64,000 nt of DNA. Origin: Escherichia coli. GTDB taxonomy: Bacteria; Pseudomonadota; Gammaproteobacteria; Enterobacterales; Enterobacteriaceae. Below the pieces are notes generated by a model that had not been told where the DNA came from, did not search any database, and was given only the letters and a program-made list of their open reading frames with translations. The stretch lies in NCBI RefSeq assembly GCF_024298765.1, contig NZ_CP101210.1; one strand, given 5' to 3'. Made by a program: the position numbers and the translations under genes. Shown in pieces: positions 380 through 54,730 of the stretch. Numbering within the stretch: position 1 is the first letter of the stretch; each line of letters begins with the position of its first letter.

Positions 380-462
380 ATAAAAAAACCTGCTGGTGAG
401 GCAGGTTCTTTTATTTACTACTTTGATGTTAAGTTACTGATAGTGCAACATGGCATCTCAAC
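380..462 (-). ncRNA. Candidate antisense antitoxin sRNA (Orz-like), about 83 nt
   Basis: Minus-strand sigma70-like promoter (TTGCAA-17-TATAAT; -10 at plus coordinates 469-474), and an intrinsic terminator (hairpin 388-407 then T-run on the minus strand). The 5' part is complementary, with mismatches, to the motif GTGCAACATGGC...CTCAAC.AACG found in both peptide leaders (1-25, 607-631). Confidence 0.5.
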
Positions 463-19689: not shown

Positions 19690-19832
19690 TTATCATCGCA
19701 ACCAAACGACTCGGGGTGCCCTTCTGCGTGAAGGCTGAGAAATACCCGTATCACCTGATCTGGATAATGCCAGCGTAGGGAAGTCACGGACCACCAGGTC
19801 ATTGCTTCTTCACGTTATGGCAGGAGCAAACT
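19690..19832 (+). ncRNA. TPP riboswitch (thi-box) in the thiM leader
   Basis: Conserved thi-box core CTGAGA within GGGGTGCCCTTCTGCGTGAAGGCTGAGAAATACCCGTATCACCTGATCTGGATAATGCCAGCGTAGGGAAG, directly upstream of thiM. Confidence 0.9.
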
Positions 19833-27622: not shown

Positions 27623-27644
27623 TACGCCTTATACGAACAACACC

Positions 27645-27766
27645 ACCCCGTAGGACGGATAAGGCGTTTACGCTGCATCCGGCAACCTATGCCTGATGCG
27701 ACGCTGAAGCGTCTTATCATGCCTACATAGCACTGCCACGTATGTTTACACCGCATCCGGCATAAA
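27645..27766. repeat. REP/BIME cluster (at least three REP units)
   Basis: Repeated REP-like palindromes GTAGGACGGATAAGGCG / GCATCCGGCA / GCCTGATGCGACGCTG / CCGCATCCGGCA. Confidence 0.8.
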
Positions 27767-27873
27767 AACACGCGCACTTTGCTACGGCTTCCCCCGGGAG
27801 GCCGTTTTTTTTGCCTGTCATTCTGGATTAATTTTCACATTGTCGTTTTTGTGATCGTTATCTCGACATTTAA

Positions 27874-28798
<925 letters not shown>

Positions 28799-28799
28799 T

Positions 28800-30073
<1,274 letters not shown>

Positions 30074-30082
30074 GGACGGTAT

Positions 30083-30535
30083 ATGACTAACCTGTTTGTT
30101 CGTAGCGGAATTTCTTTTGTCGATCGTAGCGAAGTTTTAACCCATATCGGTAATGAGATGCTCGCGAAAGGTGTGGTTTATGATACCTGGCCACAGGCAT
30201 TAATTGCCAGAGAAGCAGAATTCCCTACCGGGATAATGCTTGAGCAGCACGCCATTGCTATACCGCATTGTGAGGCGATTCATGCTAAGTCGTCAGCCAT
30301 TTATCTGTTAAGGCCAACAAATAAAGTTCATTTTCAGCAAGCGGATGATGATAACGACGTGGAGGTGTCGTTGGTTATTGCGTTGATTGTGGAAAATCCG
30401 CAGCAGCAATTGAAACTTTTACGCTGTTTATTTGGCAAGTTACAACAGCCCGATATCGTCGAGACACTAATTACTCTTCCTGAAACTCAGTTAAAGGAAT
30501 ACTTCACAAAGTATGTTTTAGATTCAGACGAATAA
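30083..30535 (+). CDS. gatA: PTS galactitol-specific EIIA
   Basis: 150 aa. Confidence 0.9.
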   Translation: MTNLFVRSGISFVDRSEVLTHIGNEMLAKGVVYDTWPQALIAREAEFPTGIMLEQHAIAIPHCEAIHAKSSAIYLLRPTNKVHFQQADDDNDVEVSLVIALIVENPQQQLKLLRCLFGKLQQPDIVETLITLPETQLKEYFTKYVLDSDE

Positions 30536-30565
30536 ATCCCTCTGTAACAATAAAAAGGACTATTT

Positions 30566-30850
30566 ATGAAACGCAAGATTATTGTCGCTTGCGGAGGCGC
30601 GGTTGCGACCTCTACGATGGCGGCGGAAGAAATTAAAGAGTTGTGTCAGAATCATAATATTCCTGTTGAATTAATCCAGTGTCGGGTTAATGAAATAGAA
30701 ACCTATATGGATGGTGTGCATTTGATATGCACCACTGCCAAAGTGGATCGTAGTTTTGGCGATATTCCGTTAGTTCACGGCATGCCTTTTATTTCTGGTG
30801 TCGGTATCGAAGCATTACAAAATAAAATTCTGACTATCTTACAGGGGTGA
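30566..30850 (+). CDS. gatB: PTS galactitol-specific EIIB
   Basis: 94 aa; active-site Cys near the N-terminus ([11 protein letters not shown]). Confidence 0.9.
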
Positions 30851-30853
30851 CCT

Positions 30854-32209
30854 ATGTTTTCAGAAGTCATGCGTTATATTCTCGACCTCGGCCCTACGGT
30901 GATGCTTCCGATTGTCATCATTATTTTTTCTAAAATATTAGGCATGAAGGCAGGCGATTGCTTTAAAGCGGGTCTGCATATCGGGATTGGCTTTGTTGGC
31001 ATTGGCCTTGTGATTGGCTTAATGCTGGATTCCATTGGCCCGGCGGCGAAAGCGATGGCGGAAAATTTCGACCTGAATCTGCATGTGGTCGATGTTGGCT
31101 GGCCGGGCTCTTCACCAATGACCTGGGCGTCGCAAATTGCGCTGGTGGCGATTCCGATTGCGATTCTGGTTAACGTGGCGATGTTACTGACCCGTATGAC
31201 GCGGGTGGTAAATGTTGATATCTGGAATATCTGGCATATGACCTTCACCGGCGCGTTGCTGCATCTGGCAACCGGTTCATGGATGATAGGGATGGCAGGT
31301 GTGGTAATTCACGCGGCGTTTGTTTATAAGCTCGGCGACTGGTTTGCCCGCGATACCCGAAATTTCTTTGAGCTGGAAGGTATTGCTATTCCGCACGGTA
31401 CGTCGGCGTATATGGGGCCGATTGCGGTGCTGGTCGATGCTATCATCGAGAAAATCCCAGGCGTTAACCGAATTAAATTTAGCGCCGACGATATTCAGCG
31501 CAAATTTGGTCCATTTGGCGAGCCTGTCACCGTGGGTTTTGTGATGGGGCTGATTATCGGCATCCTCGCGGGTTACGATGTCAAAGGTGTATTGCAGCTG
31601 GCGGTAAAAACGGCGGCAGTGATGCTGCTAATGCCACGGGTGATTAAACCCATCATGGATGGTTTAACGCCCATCGCTAAGCAGGCTCGTAGTCGTTTAC
31701 AGGCGAAGTTCGGCGGTCAGGAGTTCCTGATTGGCCTTGATCCGGCGTTGCTGCTGGGACATACGGCGGTGGTATCGGCAAGCCTGATTTTTATCCCACT
31801 CACCATTTTAATTGCTGTTTGTGTGCCGGGTAATCAGGTGCTGCCGTTTGGCGATCTTGCCACCATCGGCTTCTTCGTGGCGATGGCGGTCGCCGTGCAT
31901 CGTGGAAATCTGTTCCGCACCTTAATCTCGGGTGTCATCATTATGAGCATCACCCTGTGGATCGCGACGCAAACTATTGGTTTGCACACCCAACTGGCGG
32001 CTAATGCTGGGGCGTTAAAAGCCGGGGGTATGGTGGCTTCAATGGATCAGGGCGGTTCTCCCATTACCTGGTTACTGATTCAGGTTTTCTCCCCGCAAAA
32101 TATTCCCGGTTTCATTATTATCGGTGCAATTTATCTGACCGGTATTTTCATGACCTGGCGTAGAGCGCGTGGCTTTATTAAACAAGAGAAAGTCGTTCTC
32201 GCAGAATAA
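30854..32209 (+). CDS. gatC: PTS galactitol-specific EIIC
   Basis: 451-aa polytopic membrane protein. Confidence 0.9.
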   Translation: MFSEVMRYILDLGPTVMLPIVIIIFSKILGMKAGDCFKAGLHIGIGFVGIGLVIGLMLDSIGPAAKAMAENFDLNLHVVDVGWPGSSPMTWASQIALVAIPIAILVNVAMLLTRMTRVVNVDIWNIWHMTFTGALLHLATGSWMIGMAGVVIHAAFVYKLGDWFARDTRNFFELEGIAIPHGTSAYMGPIAVLVDAIIEKIPGVNRIKFSADDIQRKFGPFGEPVTVGFVMGLIIGILAGYDVKGVLQLAVKTAAVMLLMPRVIKPIMDGLTPIAKQARSRLQAKFGGQEFLIGLDPALLLGHTAVVSASLIFIPLTILIAVCVPGNQVLPFGDLATIGFFVAMAVAVHRGNLFRTLISGVIIMSITLWIATQTIGLHTQLAANAGALKAGGMVASMDQGGSPITWLLIQVFSPQNIPGFIIIGAIYLTGIFMTWRRARGFIKQEKVVLAE

Positions 32210-32256
32210 TTTTTACCTGAGGGGGAGGTTATCCCCCTTAACAATCAGGAGTTTTT

Positions 32257-33297
32257 ATGAAATCAGTGGTGAATGATACTGATGGTATCGTGCGCGTTGC
32301 AGAAAGCGTCATTCCTGAAATTAAACATCAGGATGAGGTGCGGGTAAAAATTGCCAGCTCGGGCTTATGTGGTTCCGATTTACCCAGGATATTTAAAAAT
32401 GGTGCACATTATTATCCAATAACGTTAGGCCATGAATTTAGCGGCTATATTGATGCGGTGGGATCCGGTGTTGATGATTTACACCCTGGCGATGCGGTTG
32501 CCTGTGTGCCGTTATTACCCTGTTTTACTTGTCCAGAGTGTCTGAAAGGGTTTTATTCCCAGTGCGCAAAATATGATTTTATTGGCTCGCGGCGTGATGG
32601 TGGATTTGCTGAATATATTGTCGTTAAGCGAAAAAATGTCTTTGCTCTACCCACGGATATGCCTATTGAGGATGGGGCTTTTATTGAGCCGATTACCGTT
32701 GGTCTGCATGCTTTTCATTTAGCGCAAGGTTGTGAGAATAAAAACGTTATTATTATTGGTGCCGGAACCATTGGCCTGCTGGCCATTCAGTGCGCTGTCG
32801 CGCTGGGAGCAAAGAGTGTGACGGCGATCGACATTAGTTCAGAAAAACTGGCACTGGCAAAATCTTTCGGTGCGATGCAAACATTTAACAGTAGCGAAAT
32901 GAGCGCGCCGCAAATGCAGAGCGTTTTACGCGAACTGCGCTTTAATCAGCTTATCCTCGAGACGGCTGGCGTACCGCAAACTGTCGAACTGGCGGTAGAG
33001 ATTGCCGGTCCTCATGCCCAACTGGCGCTGGTGGGCACGTTGCATCAGGATCTGCATTTAACATCGGCAACGTTTGGCAAAATATTGCGTAAAGAGCTGA
33101 CGGTTATCGGCAGTTGGATGAACTACTCCAGCCCTTGGCCGGGGCAGGAGTGGGAAACGGCGAGCCGGTTGCTGACAGAACGTAAGTTAAGCCTGGAGCC
33201 ATTAATCGCTCACCGTGGAAGCTTTGAAAGCTTCGCCCAGGCGGTGCGTGACATCGCTCGTAATGCTATGCCGGGCAAAGTGTTGCTCATTCCCTGA
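32257..33297 (+). CDS. gatD: Galactitol-1-phosphate 5-dehydrogenase (Zn-dependent MDR family)
   Basis: 346 aa; GHEFSG zinc-ligand motif and Rossmann GAGTIG. Confidence 0.9.
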   Translation: MKSVVNDTDGIVRVAESVIPEIKHQDEVRVKIASSGLCGSDLPRIFKNGAHYYPITLGHEFSGYIDAVGSGVDDLHPGDAVACVPLLPCFTCPECLKGFYSQCAKYDFIGSRRDGGFAEYIVVKRKNVFALPTDMPIEDGAFIEPITVGLHAFHLAQGCENKNVIIIGAGTIGLLAIQCAVALGAKSVTAIDISSEKLALAKSFGAMQTFNSSEMSAPQMQSVLRELRFNQLILETAGVPQTVELAVEIAGPHAQLALVGTLHQDLHLTSATFGKILRKELTVIGSWMNYSSPWPGQEWETASRLLTERKLSLEPLIAHRGSFESFAQAVRDIARNAMPGKVLLIP

Positions 33298-33396
33298 AAC
33301 CGCGGGCCAGCGTGATGCTGGCCCGGTATTGTGCAAAACAGATCATTCACCAATGGTCCCCCTTCGTTTACACTAGCCACAATTGAATATGGGTAA

Positions 33397-34176
33397 ATGA
33401 CGATGAATTCATTCGAGCGAAGGAATAAGATCATCCAATTAGTGAATGAACAGGGAACCGTGCTTGTTCAGGATCTGGCGGGAGTATTTGCTGCCTCGGA
33501 AGCGACAATCCGTGCCGATTTGCGCTTTCTCGAACAAAAAGGCGTGGTTACGCGCTTTCATGGCGGTGCGGCGAAAATAATGTCTGGTAATAGTGAAACC
33601 GAGACCCAGGAAGTCGGGTTTAAAGAGCGATTTCAGCTCGCCAGCGCGCCAAAAAACAGAATAGCGCAGGCGGCAGTCAAAATGATCCACGAAGGGATGA
33701 CCGTTATTCTCGACAGCGGAAGTACGACAATGCTTATCGCCGAAGGATTAATGACCGCCAAAAATATCACGGTGATTACCAACAGTCTCCCGGCAGCGTT
33801 TGCCCTTTCCGAAAATAAAGACATTACTCTGGTCGTCTGTGGTGGCACGGTCCGCCATAAAACGCGCTCGATGCATGGTTCCATTGCCGAGCGTTCATTA
33901 CAGGATATTAATGCCGATTTAATGTTTGTCGGTGCTGATGGTATTGATGCGGTTAATGGTATTACGACCTTTAATGAAGGTTATTCTATTAGCGGTGCGA
34001 TGGTCACAGCCGCTAATAAAGTGATTGCCGTTCTCGATTCATCGAAATTTAACCGTCGCGGTTTTAATCAGGTACTACCAATCGAAAAAATTGACATTAT
34101 TATTACCGATGATGCTGTGTCAGAGGTGGATAAACTGGCATTGCAGAAGACGCGGGTAAAATTAATTACGGTGTAG
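33397..34176 (+). CDS. gatR: DeoR-family repressor of the gat operon (intact)
   Basis: 259 aa, N-terminal HTH plus sugar-binding domain; uninterrupted here. Confidence 0.85.
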   Translation: MTMNSFERRNKIIQLVNEQGTVLVQDLAGVFAASEATIRADLRFLEQKGVVTRFHGGAAKIMSGNSETETQEVGFKERFQLASAPKNRIAQAAVKMIHEGMTVILDSGSTTMLIAEGLMTAKNITVITNSLPAAFALSENKDITLVVCGGTVRHKTRSMHGSIAERSLQDINADLMFVGADGIDAVNGITTFNEGYSISGAMVTAANKVIAVLDSSKFNRRGFNQVLPIEKIDIIITDDAVSEVDKLALQKTRVKLITV

Positions 34177-34185
34177 TATTGTTCT

Positions 34186-34222
34186 GTATGCCGGATAAGG
34201 TGTTTACACCGCATCCGGCATT
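34186..34222. repeat. REP element
   Basis: TGCCGGATAAGGTGTTTACACCGCATCCGGCA palindrome. Confidence 0.75.
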
Positions 34223-34257
34223 ACGGATTCTCCCTGGTTCAAGAGAGAATAGTTTGA

Positions 34258-35157
34258 TTAACGCAACAGTGGACAATCTGGTGGTAATCGACAACGCAAC
34301 GCTGCCGGAAGTATTTCAATATGAAAATTTTGCCCACTCAACGGTTCGCCATCAAGATTAAAGGTGATGTCGTGTGGTGCCTGAATATCAAACCACGACG
34401 AAGCGCCTTCGATAATATTCGGGTTATCTTCGTCAGATTTTAAGGTTGATACGAGAGCCGGAAGTATTTCATCGCCGGTAAAAATGCGCAGTTGCAGCAA
34501 GCCATCGTTAATTAACGCGTTCGGACACAATTGCTGACCGCCACCGGCCTGACGCCCGTTACCAATACCAATGACCAGGGCGTCACCTTGCCAGTGAAAG
34601 TTTTCACCGCGGATTTCACAACGGTCCGGTTGCAGAGTATCCATACGCATTAAGCCATGAATGATGTAAGAGACGCTACCCAGCGCGGCTTTTAATTTTT
34701 CCGGCGTTTCTGTGGTAATACGCGTCCCAAATCCGCCTGTCGCCATATTAATAAAACAGGTTTGTTTGTTGACCTGCGCCATATCTATCGCAATGGCGTC
34801 ACCGGCAATTGCCAGTTTCAGCGCCTTATCCAGTGCCTCAGGAATCCCTACACTGGTGGCAAAATCATTGGCGGTTCCTAATGGCAAAATTCCCAGCGCG
34901 GGTATGTCATCCCCCTCACACTGAATCAACGCCGTAGAAACTTCATTAATGGTGCCATCGCCACCACCGGCAATCACCGTTGCGACGCCCAACTTCCGGG
35001 CCTCCTCTACATATCGTGCGGCATCGCCTTTCTCCCAGGTGACCCGCACATGGATCGTCATTCCTTCCTCACGCAACAGCATAATTGCTTCGCGCAAGGG
35101 TAGATTGTCAGTACTTTTGCCATTAAGAATCAGTAAGCTGGCGGGAAATTCTGCCAT
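34258..35157 (-). CDS. yegS: Lipid kinase YegS (DAG-kinase-like fold)
   Basis: 299 aa; GGDGT motif (GGGDGTINE). Confidence 0.9.
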
Positions 35158-36039: not shown

Positions 36040-36126
36040 AAAAAATAAGCCCGTGTAAGGGAGATTACACAGGCTAAGGAGGTGGTTCCTGGTACAGCTA
36101 GCATTTTATGGGTTATGTTTTTCAGC
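36040..36126 (-). ncRNA. cyaR: CyaR (RyeE) Hfq-dependent sRNA
   Basis: Minus-strand sequence GCTGAAAAACATAACCCATAAAATGCTAGCTGTACCAGGAACCACCTCCTTAGCCTGTGTAATCTCCCTTACACGGGCTTATTTTTTT matches the CyaR sequence as I remember it, including the terminator; lies immediately downstream of yegQ. Confidence 0.85.
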
Positions 36127-36160
36127 GAAACGGATGATAACCTTAATAAATGCAGCTGTA

Positions 36161-49444: not shown

Positions 49445-49590
49445 CGGATGCTGAAACGGGAAAGCCCCTCCCGAGGAAGGGGCCTTAAATAAGGAAAGGG
49501 TCATGATGAAGCTACTCATCATCGTGGTGCTCTTAGTCATAAGCTTCCCCGCTTACTAAGACTACCAGGGCGGGGGAAACCCCGCTCTAC
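49445..49590 (-). ncRNA. sibB: SibB-like antisense sRNA (antitoxin of ibsB)
   Basis: Minus-strand promoter TTGACA-17-TACTTT downstream of the ibsB stop, and hairpin GCCCCT...AGGGGC at about 49465-49485 as terminator; fully overlaps ibsB. Ends are approximate. Confidence 0.5.
49503..49559 (+). CDS. ibsB: Ibs type I toxin peptide (18 aa)
   Basis: RBS AAGGAAAGGG then ATGATG...; translation MMKLLIIVVLLVISFPAY. Confidence 0.75.
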   Translation: MMKLLIIVVLLVISFPAY

Positions 49591-49847
49591 CCTCACTCCT
49601 GAAAGTATGCCTTCACGATAAGATTGTCAATCCGCAGGCTTTGTAGTCTGCGATCCTGCCAGCAAATATTCTTTGCGAGTCGTTACGCAATAATCACAGA
49701 GGAAACTATTTTATTCACGCGTTAGCGATAGACTGCATTCAGGGCGAAAGGAGGTAAGCCGATGATTTCAGCGGGACGCTGAAACGGGAAAGCCTCTCCC
49801 TGTACTGCACCCATTTTGTTGGACGATGAAATGGAATAGCCCCTAAT

Positions 49848-50369
49848 ATGTCAAAGCCAAAATACCCTTTTGAAAAGCGCCTTGAAGTCGTGAATCACTA
49901 CTTCACAACTGATGATGGTTACAGGATCATCTCGGCACGTTTTGGTGTCCCCCGAACCCAGGTCAGGACATGGGTTGCCCTCTATGAAAAACATGGAGAA
50001 AAAGGTTTAATTCCCAAACCTAAAGGCGTTAGTGCTGATCCAGAGTTGCGTATTAAGGTCGTGAAAGCTGTGATCGAGCAGCACATGTCCCTTAATCAGG
50101 CTGCTGCTCACTTTATGCTTGCTGGTAGTGGTTCTGTAGCCAGGTGGCTGAAGGTCTATGAAGAGCGCGGAGAAGCTGGTTTACGCGCGCTCAAGATTGG
50201 CACCAAAAGAAACATTGCAATATCAGTTGATCCAGAAAAAGCGGCATCAGCATTGGAGCTGTCAAAAGACCGACGCATTGAGGATCTTGAAAGGCAAGTT
50301 CGATTTCTTGAAACGCGGCTTGTGTATCTAAAAAAGCTGAAAGCCTTAGCTCATCCCACGAAAAAGTGA
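49848..50369 (+). CDS. insJ: IS150 OrfA (InsJ) transposase DNA-binding subunit
   Basis: 173 aa, HTH-containing IS3-family OrfA. Confidence 0.9.
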   Translation: MSKPKYPFEKRLEVVNHYFTTDDGYRIISARFGVPRTQVRTWVALYEKHGEKGLIPKPKGVSADPELRIKVVKAVIEQHMSLNQAAAHFMLAGSGSVARWLKVYEERGEAGLRALKIGTKRNIAISVDPEKAASALELSKDRRIEDLERQVRFLETRLVYLKKLKALAHPTKK

Positions 50370-51217
50370 AAGTACTCAACGAGCTAAGGCAGTTTTATCC
50401 TCTTGATGAGCTTCTCAGGGCTGCGGAGATACCGCGCAGTACGTTTTATTACCATCTAAAGGCTCTCAGCAAGCCTGACAAGTATGCGGACGTTAAAAAG
50501 CGTATTGGTGAGATTTATCATGAGAATAGAGGCCGATACGGATACCGTAGGGTAACGCTGTCTCTTCATCGAGAAGGGAAACAGATTAACCATAAAGCTG
50601 TTCAGCGCCTGATGGGAATCCTCTCACTGAAGGCAGCGATTAAGGTCAAGCGATACCGCTCTTACAGAGGAGAGGTAGGGCAAACCGCCCCCAATGTTCT
50701 CCAAAGAGATTTCAAGGCTACGCGGCCAAACGAGAAGTGGGTTACCGATGTTACTGAATTTGCAGTCAATGGGCGCAAGCTGTATTTGTCTCCAGTAATA
50801 GATCTCTTCAACAACGAAGTTATTTCTTACAGCCTTTCGGAAAGACCAGTGATGAACATGGTCGAGAATATGCTCGATCAGGCATTCAAAAAGCTTAATC
50901 CTCACGAGCATCCTGTTCTGCACTCTGACCAGGGATGGCAGTATCGTATGAGAAGATATCAAAATATCCTTAAAGAACATGGTATTAAACAAAGCATGTC
51001 CAGAAAAGGCAATTGTCTGGATAATGCTGTGGTGGAGTGTTTCTTTGGAACCTTAAAGTCGGAGTGTTTTTATCTTGATGAGTTCAGTAATATAAGCGAG
51101 CTGAAGGATGCTGTTACGGAATATATTGAATACTACAACAGCAGAAGAATTAGCCTGAAATTAAAAGGTCTGACTCCAATTGAATATCGGAATCAGACCT
51201 ATATGCCTCGTGTTTAA
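50366..51217 (+). CDS. insK: IS150 OrfB (InsK) transposase catalytic subunit (DDE)
   Basis: 283 aa, DDE/integrase core; normally expressed as an OrfAB fusion by -1 frameshifting. Confidence 0.9.
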
Positions 51218-51243
51218 CTGTCCAACTTTTTGGGGTCAGTACA

Positions 51244-51400
51244 CCCGGAGAAGAGGGCTTTTAATAAGGAAAGGGTTATGATGAAGCACGTCATCATACT
51301 GGTGATACTCTTAGTGATTAGCTTCCAGGCTTACTAAGAACACCAGGGGGAGGGGGAAACCTCTCCCTAACCCTCACTCCTGAAATTATGTCACTCCGCC
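51244..51400 (-). ncRNA. sibA: SibA-like antisense sRNA, 3' region interrupted by IS150
   Basis: Minus-strand promoter TTGACA-17-TAATTT downstream of the ibsA stop; its expected terminator (by comparison with the sibB copy) is where IS150 sits. Ends are approximate. Confidence 0.4.
51278..51337 (+). CDS. ibsA: Ibs type I toxin peptide (19 aa), separated from its native leader by IS150
   Basis: RBS AAGGAAAGGG then ATGATG...; translation MMKHVIILVILLVISFQAY. Confidence 0.7.
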   Translation: MMKHVIILVILLVISFQAY

Positions 51401-51557
51401 CTTAGTGTCAATCGACGGCTCTCCGTTCTTGCGAGGCGAATAGCAAAATTTTCTGCGCCGCCGGGCCTAATTCTGAAAGTTTCTTCGTTTGTTCTTATTT
51501 CATTATTGCAGTCGGTATGATACCGGACCTCAATAATTCTCTAAGAAAGGATTTCTT

Positions 51558-53501: not shown

Positions 53502-53536
53502 TTTTTCTCCAGAATCTCTGTGTAGTAAAAGTTAGG

Positions 53537-54730
<1,194 letters not shown>

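Follow-up and report, generated by a model that had tools for sequence, protein, structure and literature searches.

The gatR gene in the 64-kb stretch of E. coli DNA analysed here (the window) is very probably the ordinary, ancestral and functional allele of the gat operon repressor gene, directly following an intact gatYZABCD block whose expression would be inducible, with K-12 and BL21 as the exceptions. The initial annotation had described gatR as one uninterrupted ORF for a DeoR-family repressor, had put forward that the K-12 gene is disrupted by an IS element that makes the gat operon constitutive, and had suggested that a REP cluster between fbaB and gatY may matter for insulation of the operon when gatR is intact. 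Our analysis bore out the first two of these statements and argued against the third. The features of the locus are collected in Table 1.

Table 1 Features of the gat locus and its flanks in the window (positions are those of the window).
Feature	Position	Strand	Remarks
REP/BIME cluster downstream of fbaB	27651-27762	+	Units 27651-27684, 27691-27726 and 27741-27762
Intrinsic terminator	27784-27813	+	9-bp stem and 4-nt loop (27784-27805), T8 run; between REPs and gatY promoter
gatY control region	27850-27898	+	CRP and operator assignments putative
CRP-like site TGTGATCGTTATCTCG	27850-27865		Centre near -41.5; putative, read from the sequence
gatY -35 hexamer, TCGACA	27863-27868		18-nt spacer to -10 hexamer
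Candidate GatR operator	27873-27898		Putative; overlaps gatY -10, contains AAAACAAATCATT
gatY -10 hexamer, CATTAT	27887-27892		
gatYZABCD structural genes, whole block	27928-33297	+	All six open
gatY	27928-28782	+	Open
gatZ	28811-30073	+	Open
gatA	30083-30535	+	Open
gatB	30566-30850	+	Open
gatC	30854-32209	+	Open, 451 aa
gatD	32257-33297	+	Open
gatD-gatR spacer	33298-33396	+	Identical to K-12 and HS
GC-rich hairpin in gatD-gatR spacer	33303-33325		9 bp, T-run absent
Motif AAAACAGATCATT in gatD-gatR spacer	33335-33347		Common to gatY promoter
Candidate sigma-70 gatR promoter	33346-33351 (TTCACC), 33369-33374 (TACACT)		Putative; 17-nt spacer
gatR CDS	33397-34176	+	Maximal ORF 259 aa; stop codon 34174-34176
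HTH_DeoR domain, GatR N-terminal	33418-33576	+	Residues 8-60; PF08220, 60.5 bits, cut-off 21
Empty 9-bp target site of the IS1 of BL21/BLR-type B strains	33628-33636	+	From comparison with BLR(DE3)
DeoRC sensor/oligomerisation domain, GatR C-terminal	33649-34110	+	Residues 85-238; PF00455
GAC, empty target site of K-12 IS3E	33699-33701	+	Duplicated on either side of IS3E in MG1655
Single REP-type palindromic unit between convergent gatR and yegS	34190-34220	+	Hairpin -27.1 kcal/mol, z = -5.2

The ORF listing of the window gave a single 259-aa ORF with an ATG start on the plus strand at gatR, and inspection of the sequence found no element inserted within it. Further Pfam analysis of its product detected an N-terminal helix-turn-helix domain and a C-terminal DeoRC domain (PF00455, 174.2 bits against a cut-off of 31.8, E = 2.5e-51), the combination that marks the DeoR/GlpR family, and the C-terminal region also matched the structure of the C-terminal domain of E. 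coli DeoR (7L6L, E = 1.9e-11). The presence of both domains, each above its cut-off, indicates that the ORF is a genuine gene and excludes a chance ORF, so that both the uninterrupted 259-aa ORF and its assignment to the DeoR family were confirmed. The gene starts with two in-frame ATGs (ATG ACG ATG), the second of which, at 33403, gives a protein of 257 aa and is the start chosen by RefSeq for MG1655 and by PGAP for other genomes. The only purine-rich stretch upstream is GGGT at 33391-33394; its spacing, 8 nt to the second ATG and 2 nt to the first, would favour the 257-aa form. In the public protein collection, the exact 259-aa and 257-aa sequences each occur on 1000 contigs or more, and the records for the exact GatR sequence are titled 'DeoR family galactitol utilization operon repressor'.

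An NCBIfam search with GatR returned no equivalog at cut-off, and a GatR-specific model was absent from the matches. The best matches were AgaR (NF040755, 232.9 bits) and SrlR (NF007753, 226.3 bits), as might be expected if the gene were a differently specialised DeoR paralogue equivalent to one of these, with no role as galactitol repressor. However, both scores fall short of the curated cut-offs (260 and 350 bits, respectively), K-12 AgaR, which has the same two-domain architecture, shares just 38% identity with GatR over 254 residues, and the gene is 100% identical to the gatR of K-12 and of HS and lies in the gat operon. An AgaR or SrlR identity is therefore extremely improbable, being refuted by the identity and synteny results. 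The gene is named gatR on the strength of its position and its identity to the reference, with the family models playing no part.

The genes on the plus strand are ordered fbaB, gatY, gatZ, gatA, gatB, gatC, gatD and gatR, followed by the convergent yegS; gatR thus follows gatYZABCD in the same orientation, with gatD before it and yegS after it. All structural genes of the window operon have the lengths of their K-12 counterparts. The gatC of MG1655 is a pseudogene with a 2-bp frameshift (an extra GG at about nucleotide 915), whereas that of the window is intact, and the MG1655 reference is thus atypical at two points of the gat operon, gatR and gatC. For gatY, an ATG at 27922 would lengthen the protein to 286 aa; several strains have GTG at this position, and the annotation starts the gene at the conserved ATG at 27928 (284 aa). 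Within the gatD-gatR spacer, the candidate gatR promoter has 8 of 12 matches as judged by eye and falls under the scan threshold.

In MG1655, gatR is annotated as pseudogene b4498, two fragments split by an IS3E of 1258 bp (2170171-2171428). Window positions 33253-33701 and 33699-34276 aligned to the two K-12 flanks at 100% identity with an overlap of 3 bp, which identifies the GAC in the overlap as the site duplicated by IS3E. IS3E interrupts the codon for Thr100 (257-aa numbering), at the beginning of the sensor domain. Joined together, the two K-12 fragments give exactly the window protein, and the window gatR is the K-12 sequence minus IS3E and one GAC copy. The alignment to K-12 therefore confirmed the statement that gatR is IS-disrupted in that strain. 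Correspondingly, E. coli GatR, intact in HS, EC3132 and most natural isolates and represented in K-12 by b4498, is the same gene in the same place between gatD and yegS, and the K-12 allele differs from that of the window in the IS3E and the second GAC copy. The gatR of BLR(DE3) was interrupted independently by an IS1, which duplicated 9 bp (window 33628-33636). Since K-12 has IS3E and BL21-type strains have a separate IS1, these two workhorse lineages have lost gatR independently. Both alleles are the same kind of event as other IS-inactivated repressors of laboratory strains, such as finO::IS3 of the F plasmid, in which an IS insertion abolishes the repressor and leads to constitutive expression; in contrast, the window keeps the undisturbed state. 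E. coli HS shows no difference from the window inside gatR, and the 105-nt stretch between the gatD stop codon and the gatR start used by RefSeq and PGAP is also nucleotide-identical in the two.

Among 5426 complete E. coli genomes, gatR was matched in 5109 and lay in one contiguous place in 4756 (~88%), a count in which insertions shorter than ~980 bp are merged into one place and which includes 35 genomes with the BL21-type gatR/IS1 junction. A 90-nt probe for the K-12 gatR/IS3E junction was found complete in 348 of the genomes, which explain almost all of the 353 genomes whose gatR match is only partial, and the 40 junction matches listed were overwhelmingly named K-12 laboratory strains or derivatives, for example MG1655, C600, J53 and DH5alpha. 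Of the 30 listed matches to the BL21-type junction, 29 were BL21-type B laboratory strains; the other, the human isolate Ec-U5, matched as two joined pieces only. The features under the Ec-U5 match (NZ_CM192144.1, 543039-543188) are a DeoR-family regulator and an IS1-like element, and in this isolate an IS1 may have inserted separately, in nature, within or next to gatR. Among natural isolates, many lineages retain gatR, O157:H7 included. These data indicate that intact gatR is the species norm and that the disrupted state is a peculiarity of laboratory lineages. Within K-12, strain NCM3722 has been reported to have an undisrupted gatR, so the insertion is not universal even there (PMC3045373), and the gat locus has been called an IS hotspot in MG1655 and W3110 (PMC9997739). 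The significance that the initial annotation had implied for an intact gatR was thus not upheld, as the gene is contiguous in most genomes and its disruption is a feature of laboratory lineages. Intact gatR is the normal state of a well-known gene and was already known as such; its finding confirms that the strain has the genes of the wild-type galactitol regulatory circuit, has little significance past correct annotation and prompts no new biological question. In their gat regulation, K-12 and BL21 are atypical, a point to bear in mind when findings on gut colonisation or metabolism from laboratory strains are carried over to natural isolates.

Published papers state that the gatR insertion makes gat expression constitutive in MG1655 (PMC5850726; PMC3045373; bioRxiv 10.64898/2026.01.05.697630), and gat expression is higher in MG1655 than in NCM3722, for which the authors blame the disruption of gatR (PMC3045373). 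Sousa et al. replaced the MG1655 pseudogene by the gatR of HS and obtained a regulated gat operon, and constitutive mutants of MG1655 with the HS gatR emerged in mice by new IS insertions in gatR (PMC5850726). The MG1655 element is termed 'IS1' in one sentence of that paper and IS3E in the genome annotation and the 2026 preprint. In LF82 and CFT073, silencing of gatR was beneficial in the mouse gut, which was taken by the authors as active repression in these strains (bioRxiv 10.64898/2026.01.05.697630). These reports, above all the restoration of regulation by the HS allele, substantiate the statement that the disruption renders gat constitutive in K-12. Because the gatR and spacer of the window are the HS allele that restored regulation in MG1655, we strongly infer that gat expression and galactitol catabolism are regulated and inducible in this strain.

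The mechanism proposed here is drawn mostly from the protein family and from the experiments on the identical allele. The N-terminal helix-turn-helix of GatR would recognise an operator in the gatY promoter, most likely the one that overlaps the -10 hexamer (~27873-27898), and may bind in front of gatR as well. Occupancy by GatR would occlude the gatY -10 and thereby block transcription. Uptake of galactitol by the GatABC phosphotransferase system would yield a phosphorylated pathway intermediate, which, as is typical for DeoR-family repressors, may bind the DeoRC domain and release GatR, and the gatY promoter would probably be activated by CRP bound around -41.5. Expression of the gat genes in the strain would thus be inducible. 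In another genus, the GatR of Salmonella Typhimurium is likewise a DeoR-type repressor of gat promoters, although the gat cluster there is presumably organised differently from that of E. coli. Deletion of the helix-turn-helix of this GatR is reported to abolish repression (PMC7972205, citing Nolle et al. 2017).

The operator was sought through AgaR, the DeoR-family repressor of the E. coli N-acetylgalactosamine/galactosamine operon. The AgaR and GatR systems both serve phosphotransferase-system/tagatose-bisphosphate pathways and have paralogous enzymes, GatY/KbaY and GatZ/KbaZ. As query we used what we take to be the AgaR operator consensus; the consensus string itself had no match in a full-text literature search. 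On the K-12 aga locus it gave six matches (0.04 expected), all in the agaR-kbaZ and agaA-agaS control regions, and its sole match in the window (0.17 expected per window) was at 27875-27898, on the gatY -10. In the aga control regions, several of the operator copies are strong, with 0-1 mismatches; the gat promoter has a single weak copy, which departs from this consensus of a paralogue at three positions. The 13-mer AAAACAAATCATT (27873-27885) within the candidate operator recurs with 12 of 13 positions identical as AAAACAGATCATT beside the weak candidate gatR promoter, a motif sharing of only modest significance that was reached by 4 of 300 shuffles. One base inside the candidate operator and motif is polymorphic (C/A/G) among the 11 strains aligned. 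The assignment of an operator at the gatY -10 is weak, and the shared motif may serve as a lead.

Across E. coli, the gatY control region varies far more than the genes next to it. Over 27780-27935 (156 nt), 73 genomes were at least 99% identical to the window, 978 were 95-99% identical, 3378 were 90-95% identical and 263 were 80-90% identical; for the gatR region every best match was at least 95% identical, and the flanking coding sequence was mostly 95-100% identical. The window allele is therefore a minority one (73 of 5426 genomes at 99% or more, with the majority in the 90-95% band), and from the terminator to the start codon of gatY it differs at about 10 positions from the allele of K-12 and HS, with which the regulation experiments were done, including a -35 of TCGACA where K-12 has TCGATA and one position within the candidate operator. 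With such an allele, regulation of gat might be unlike that of K-12 or HS, that is leaky, constitutive or non-inducible, in spite of the intact gatR ORF. However, when 11 diverse E. coli alleles were aligned, the stretch from 27839 through the gatY -10 hexamer proved invariant or nearly so, with the differences clustering in the terminator loop, the spacer just past the T-run and the 5' leader. Moreover, the -35 allele of the window is also that of most strains compared, its allele at the operator position occurs in other strains as well, and both fit their respective consensus no worse than those of K-12. Regulation altered in this way is thus quite unlikely. Because the promoter core is conserved, the diversity upstream of gatY is regarded as haplotype recombination in a poorly constrained spacer. 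It is conceivable, with a slightly better though still low chance, that the gatY control region stands out within E. coli as a cis-regulatory segment of unusual polymorphism and that the window allele, with its consensus-like -35 and a C in the candidate operator, tunes repression or induction under the same GatR; if true, this would be natural cis-regulatory tuning at a locus under strong, fluctuating gut selection. Inducible expression under an intact, ordinary GatR remains the preferred reading for the strain. In strain 11899A_LBHALD, the -10 hexamer, the leader and the gatY start are lost, and this strain may be a natural gat-negative one.

The REP cluster that the initial annotation had placed at 27645-27766 between fbaB and gatY does exist, with its units mapped within 27651-27762. 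Three REP/BIME-type units were found in the cluster and a fourth at 34190-34220 (0.01 expected by chance), 27653-27723 matches Rfam naRNA4 above its gathering score (64.5 against 59.5 bits), and 27623-27815 folds at -66.7 kcal/mol (z = -4.5). Three palindromes with a stable fold and a recognised RNA family would be compatible with a cluster that shields gat from transcription out of fbaB and is of specific importance in strains with an intact gatR, but its distribution argues otherwise. The cluster is identical base for base in K-12, where gatR is broken, and in HS, and so the REPs are not linked to the state of gatR. It is missing in Ecol_867 and EC-10, where fbaB ends ~80 nt ahead of the same terminator and the gatY promoter is normal. 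Furthermore, the REPs are separated from the promoter by a canonical intrinsic terminator, which is kept in all 11 strains compared; it is evidently the boundary that sets gat apart from fbaB, and the obvious insulator. An insulating role of the REP cluster is thus very unlikely, and the suggestion to that effect found no support. The REPs here more likely stabilise the 3' end of the fbaB mRNA. In strain 23CRST031, an IS1397-family transposase gene ends ~130 bp upstream of the conserved stretch of terminator and promoter, which, judged from the gene coordinate, is roughly at the position of the REP cluster of the window; IS1397 targets BIMEs.

Other elements were observed elsewhere in the window. 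An IS3-family element of 1443 bp (49801-51243), missing from K-12 and flanked by a 3-bp target duplication, has two overlapping ORFs, the second of which scores 348 bits to an IS3-family transposase model; by size and N-terminal sequence we take it to resemble IS150. A sib/ibs type I toxin-antitoxin module flanks it on either side (SIB RNA at 49488-49630 and 51263-51411), and its position roughly coincides with the 3' end annotated for K-12 sibA. In the yegJ-yegI intergenic region, an IS5-family element of 1195 bp (53536-54730) with a 4-bp target duplication and a 326-aa transposase (366.8 bits) is missing from both K-12 and HS. Mobile IS elements of the IS3 and IS5 families are therefore present within 20 kb of the intact gatR. 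The K-12 cryptic prophage remnant PR-X (ogrK and yegZ, ~610 bp) is missing at 36040-36057, where the two K-12 flanks of PR-X join with an 18-bp overlap beside cyaR (36043-36128, minus strand), and this place looks like an empty attachment site at the 3' terminus of the gene for the CyaR sRNA. The cyaR locus of HS is likewise without ogrK. At the beginning of the window, positions 1-846 contain an OrzO-P antitoxin RNA (382-455, minus strand; Rfam RF02083, 91.7 bits) and align partly to the K-12 yehK-yehL spacer (345-560, 84% identity); this is presumably a zor-orz type I toxin-antitoxin locus that is missing from K-12. The thiMD genes are preceded by the TPP riboswitch expected at this locus (19702-19798, plus strand; Rfam RF00059, 71.2 bits).
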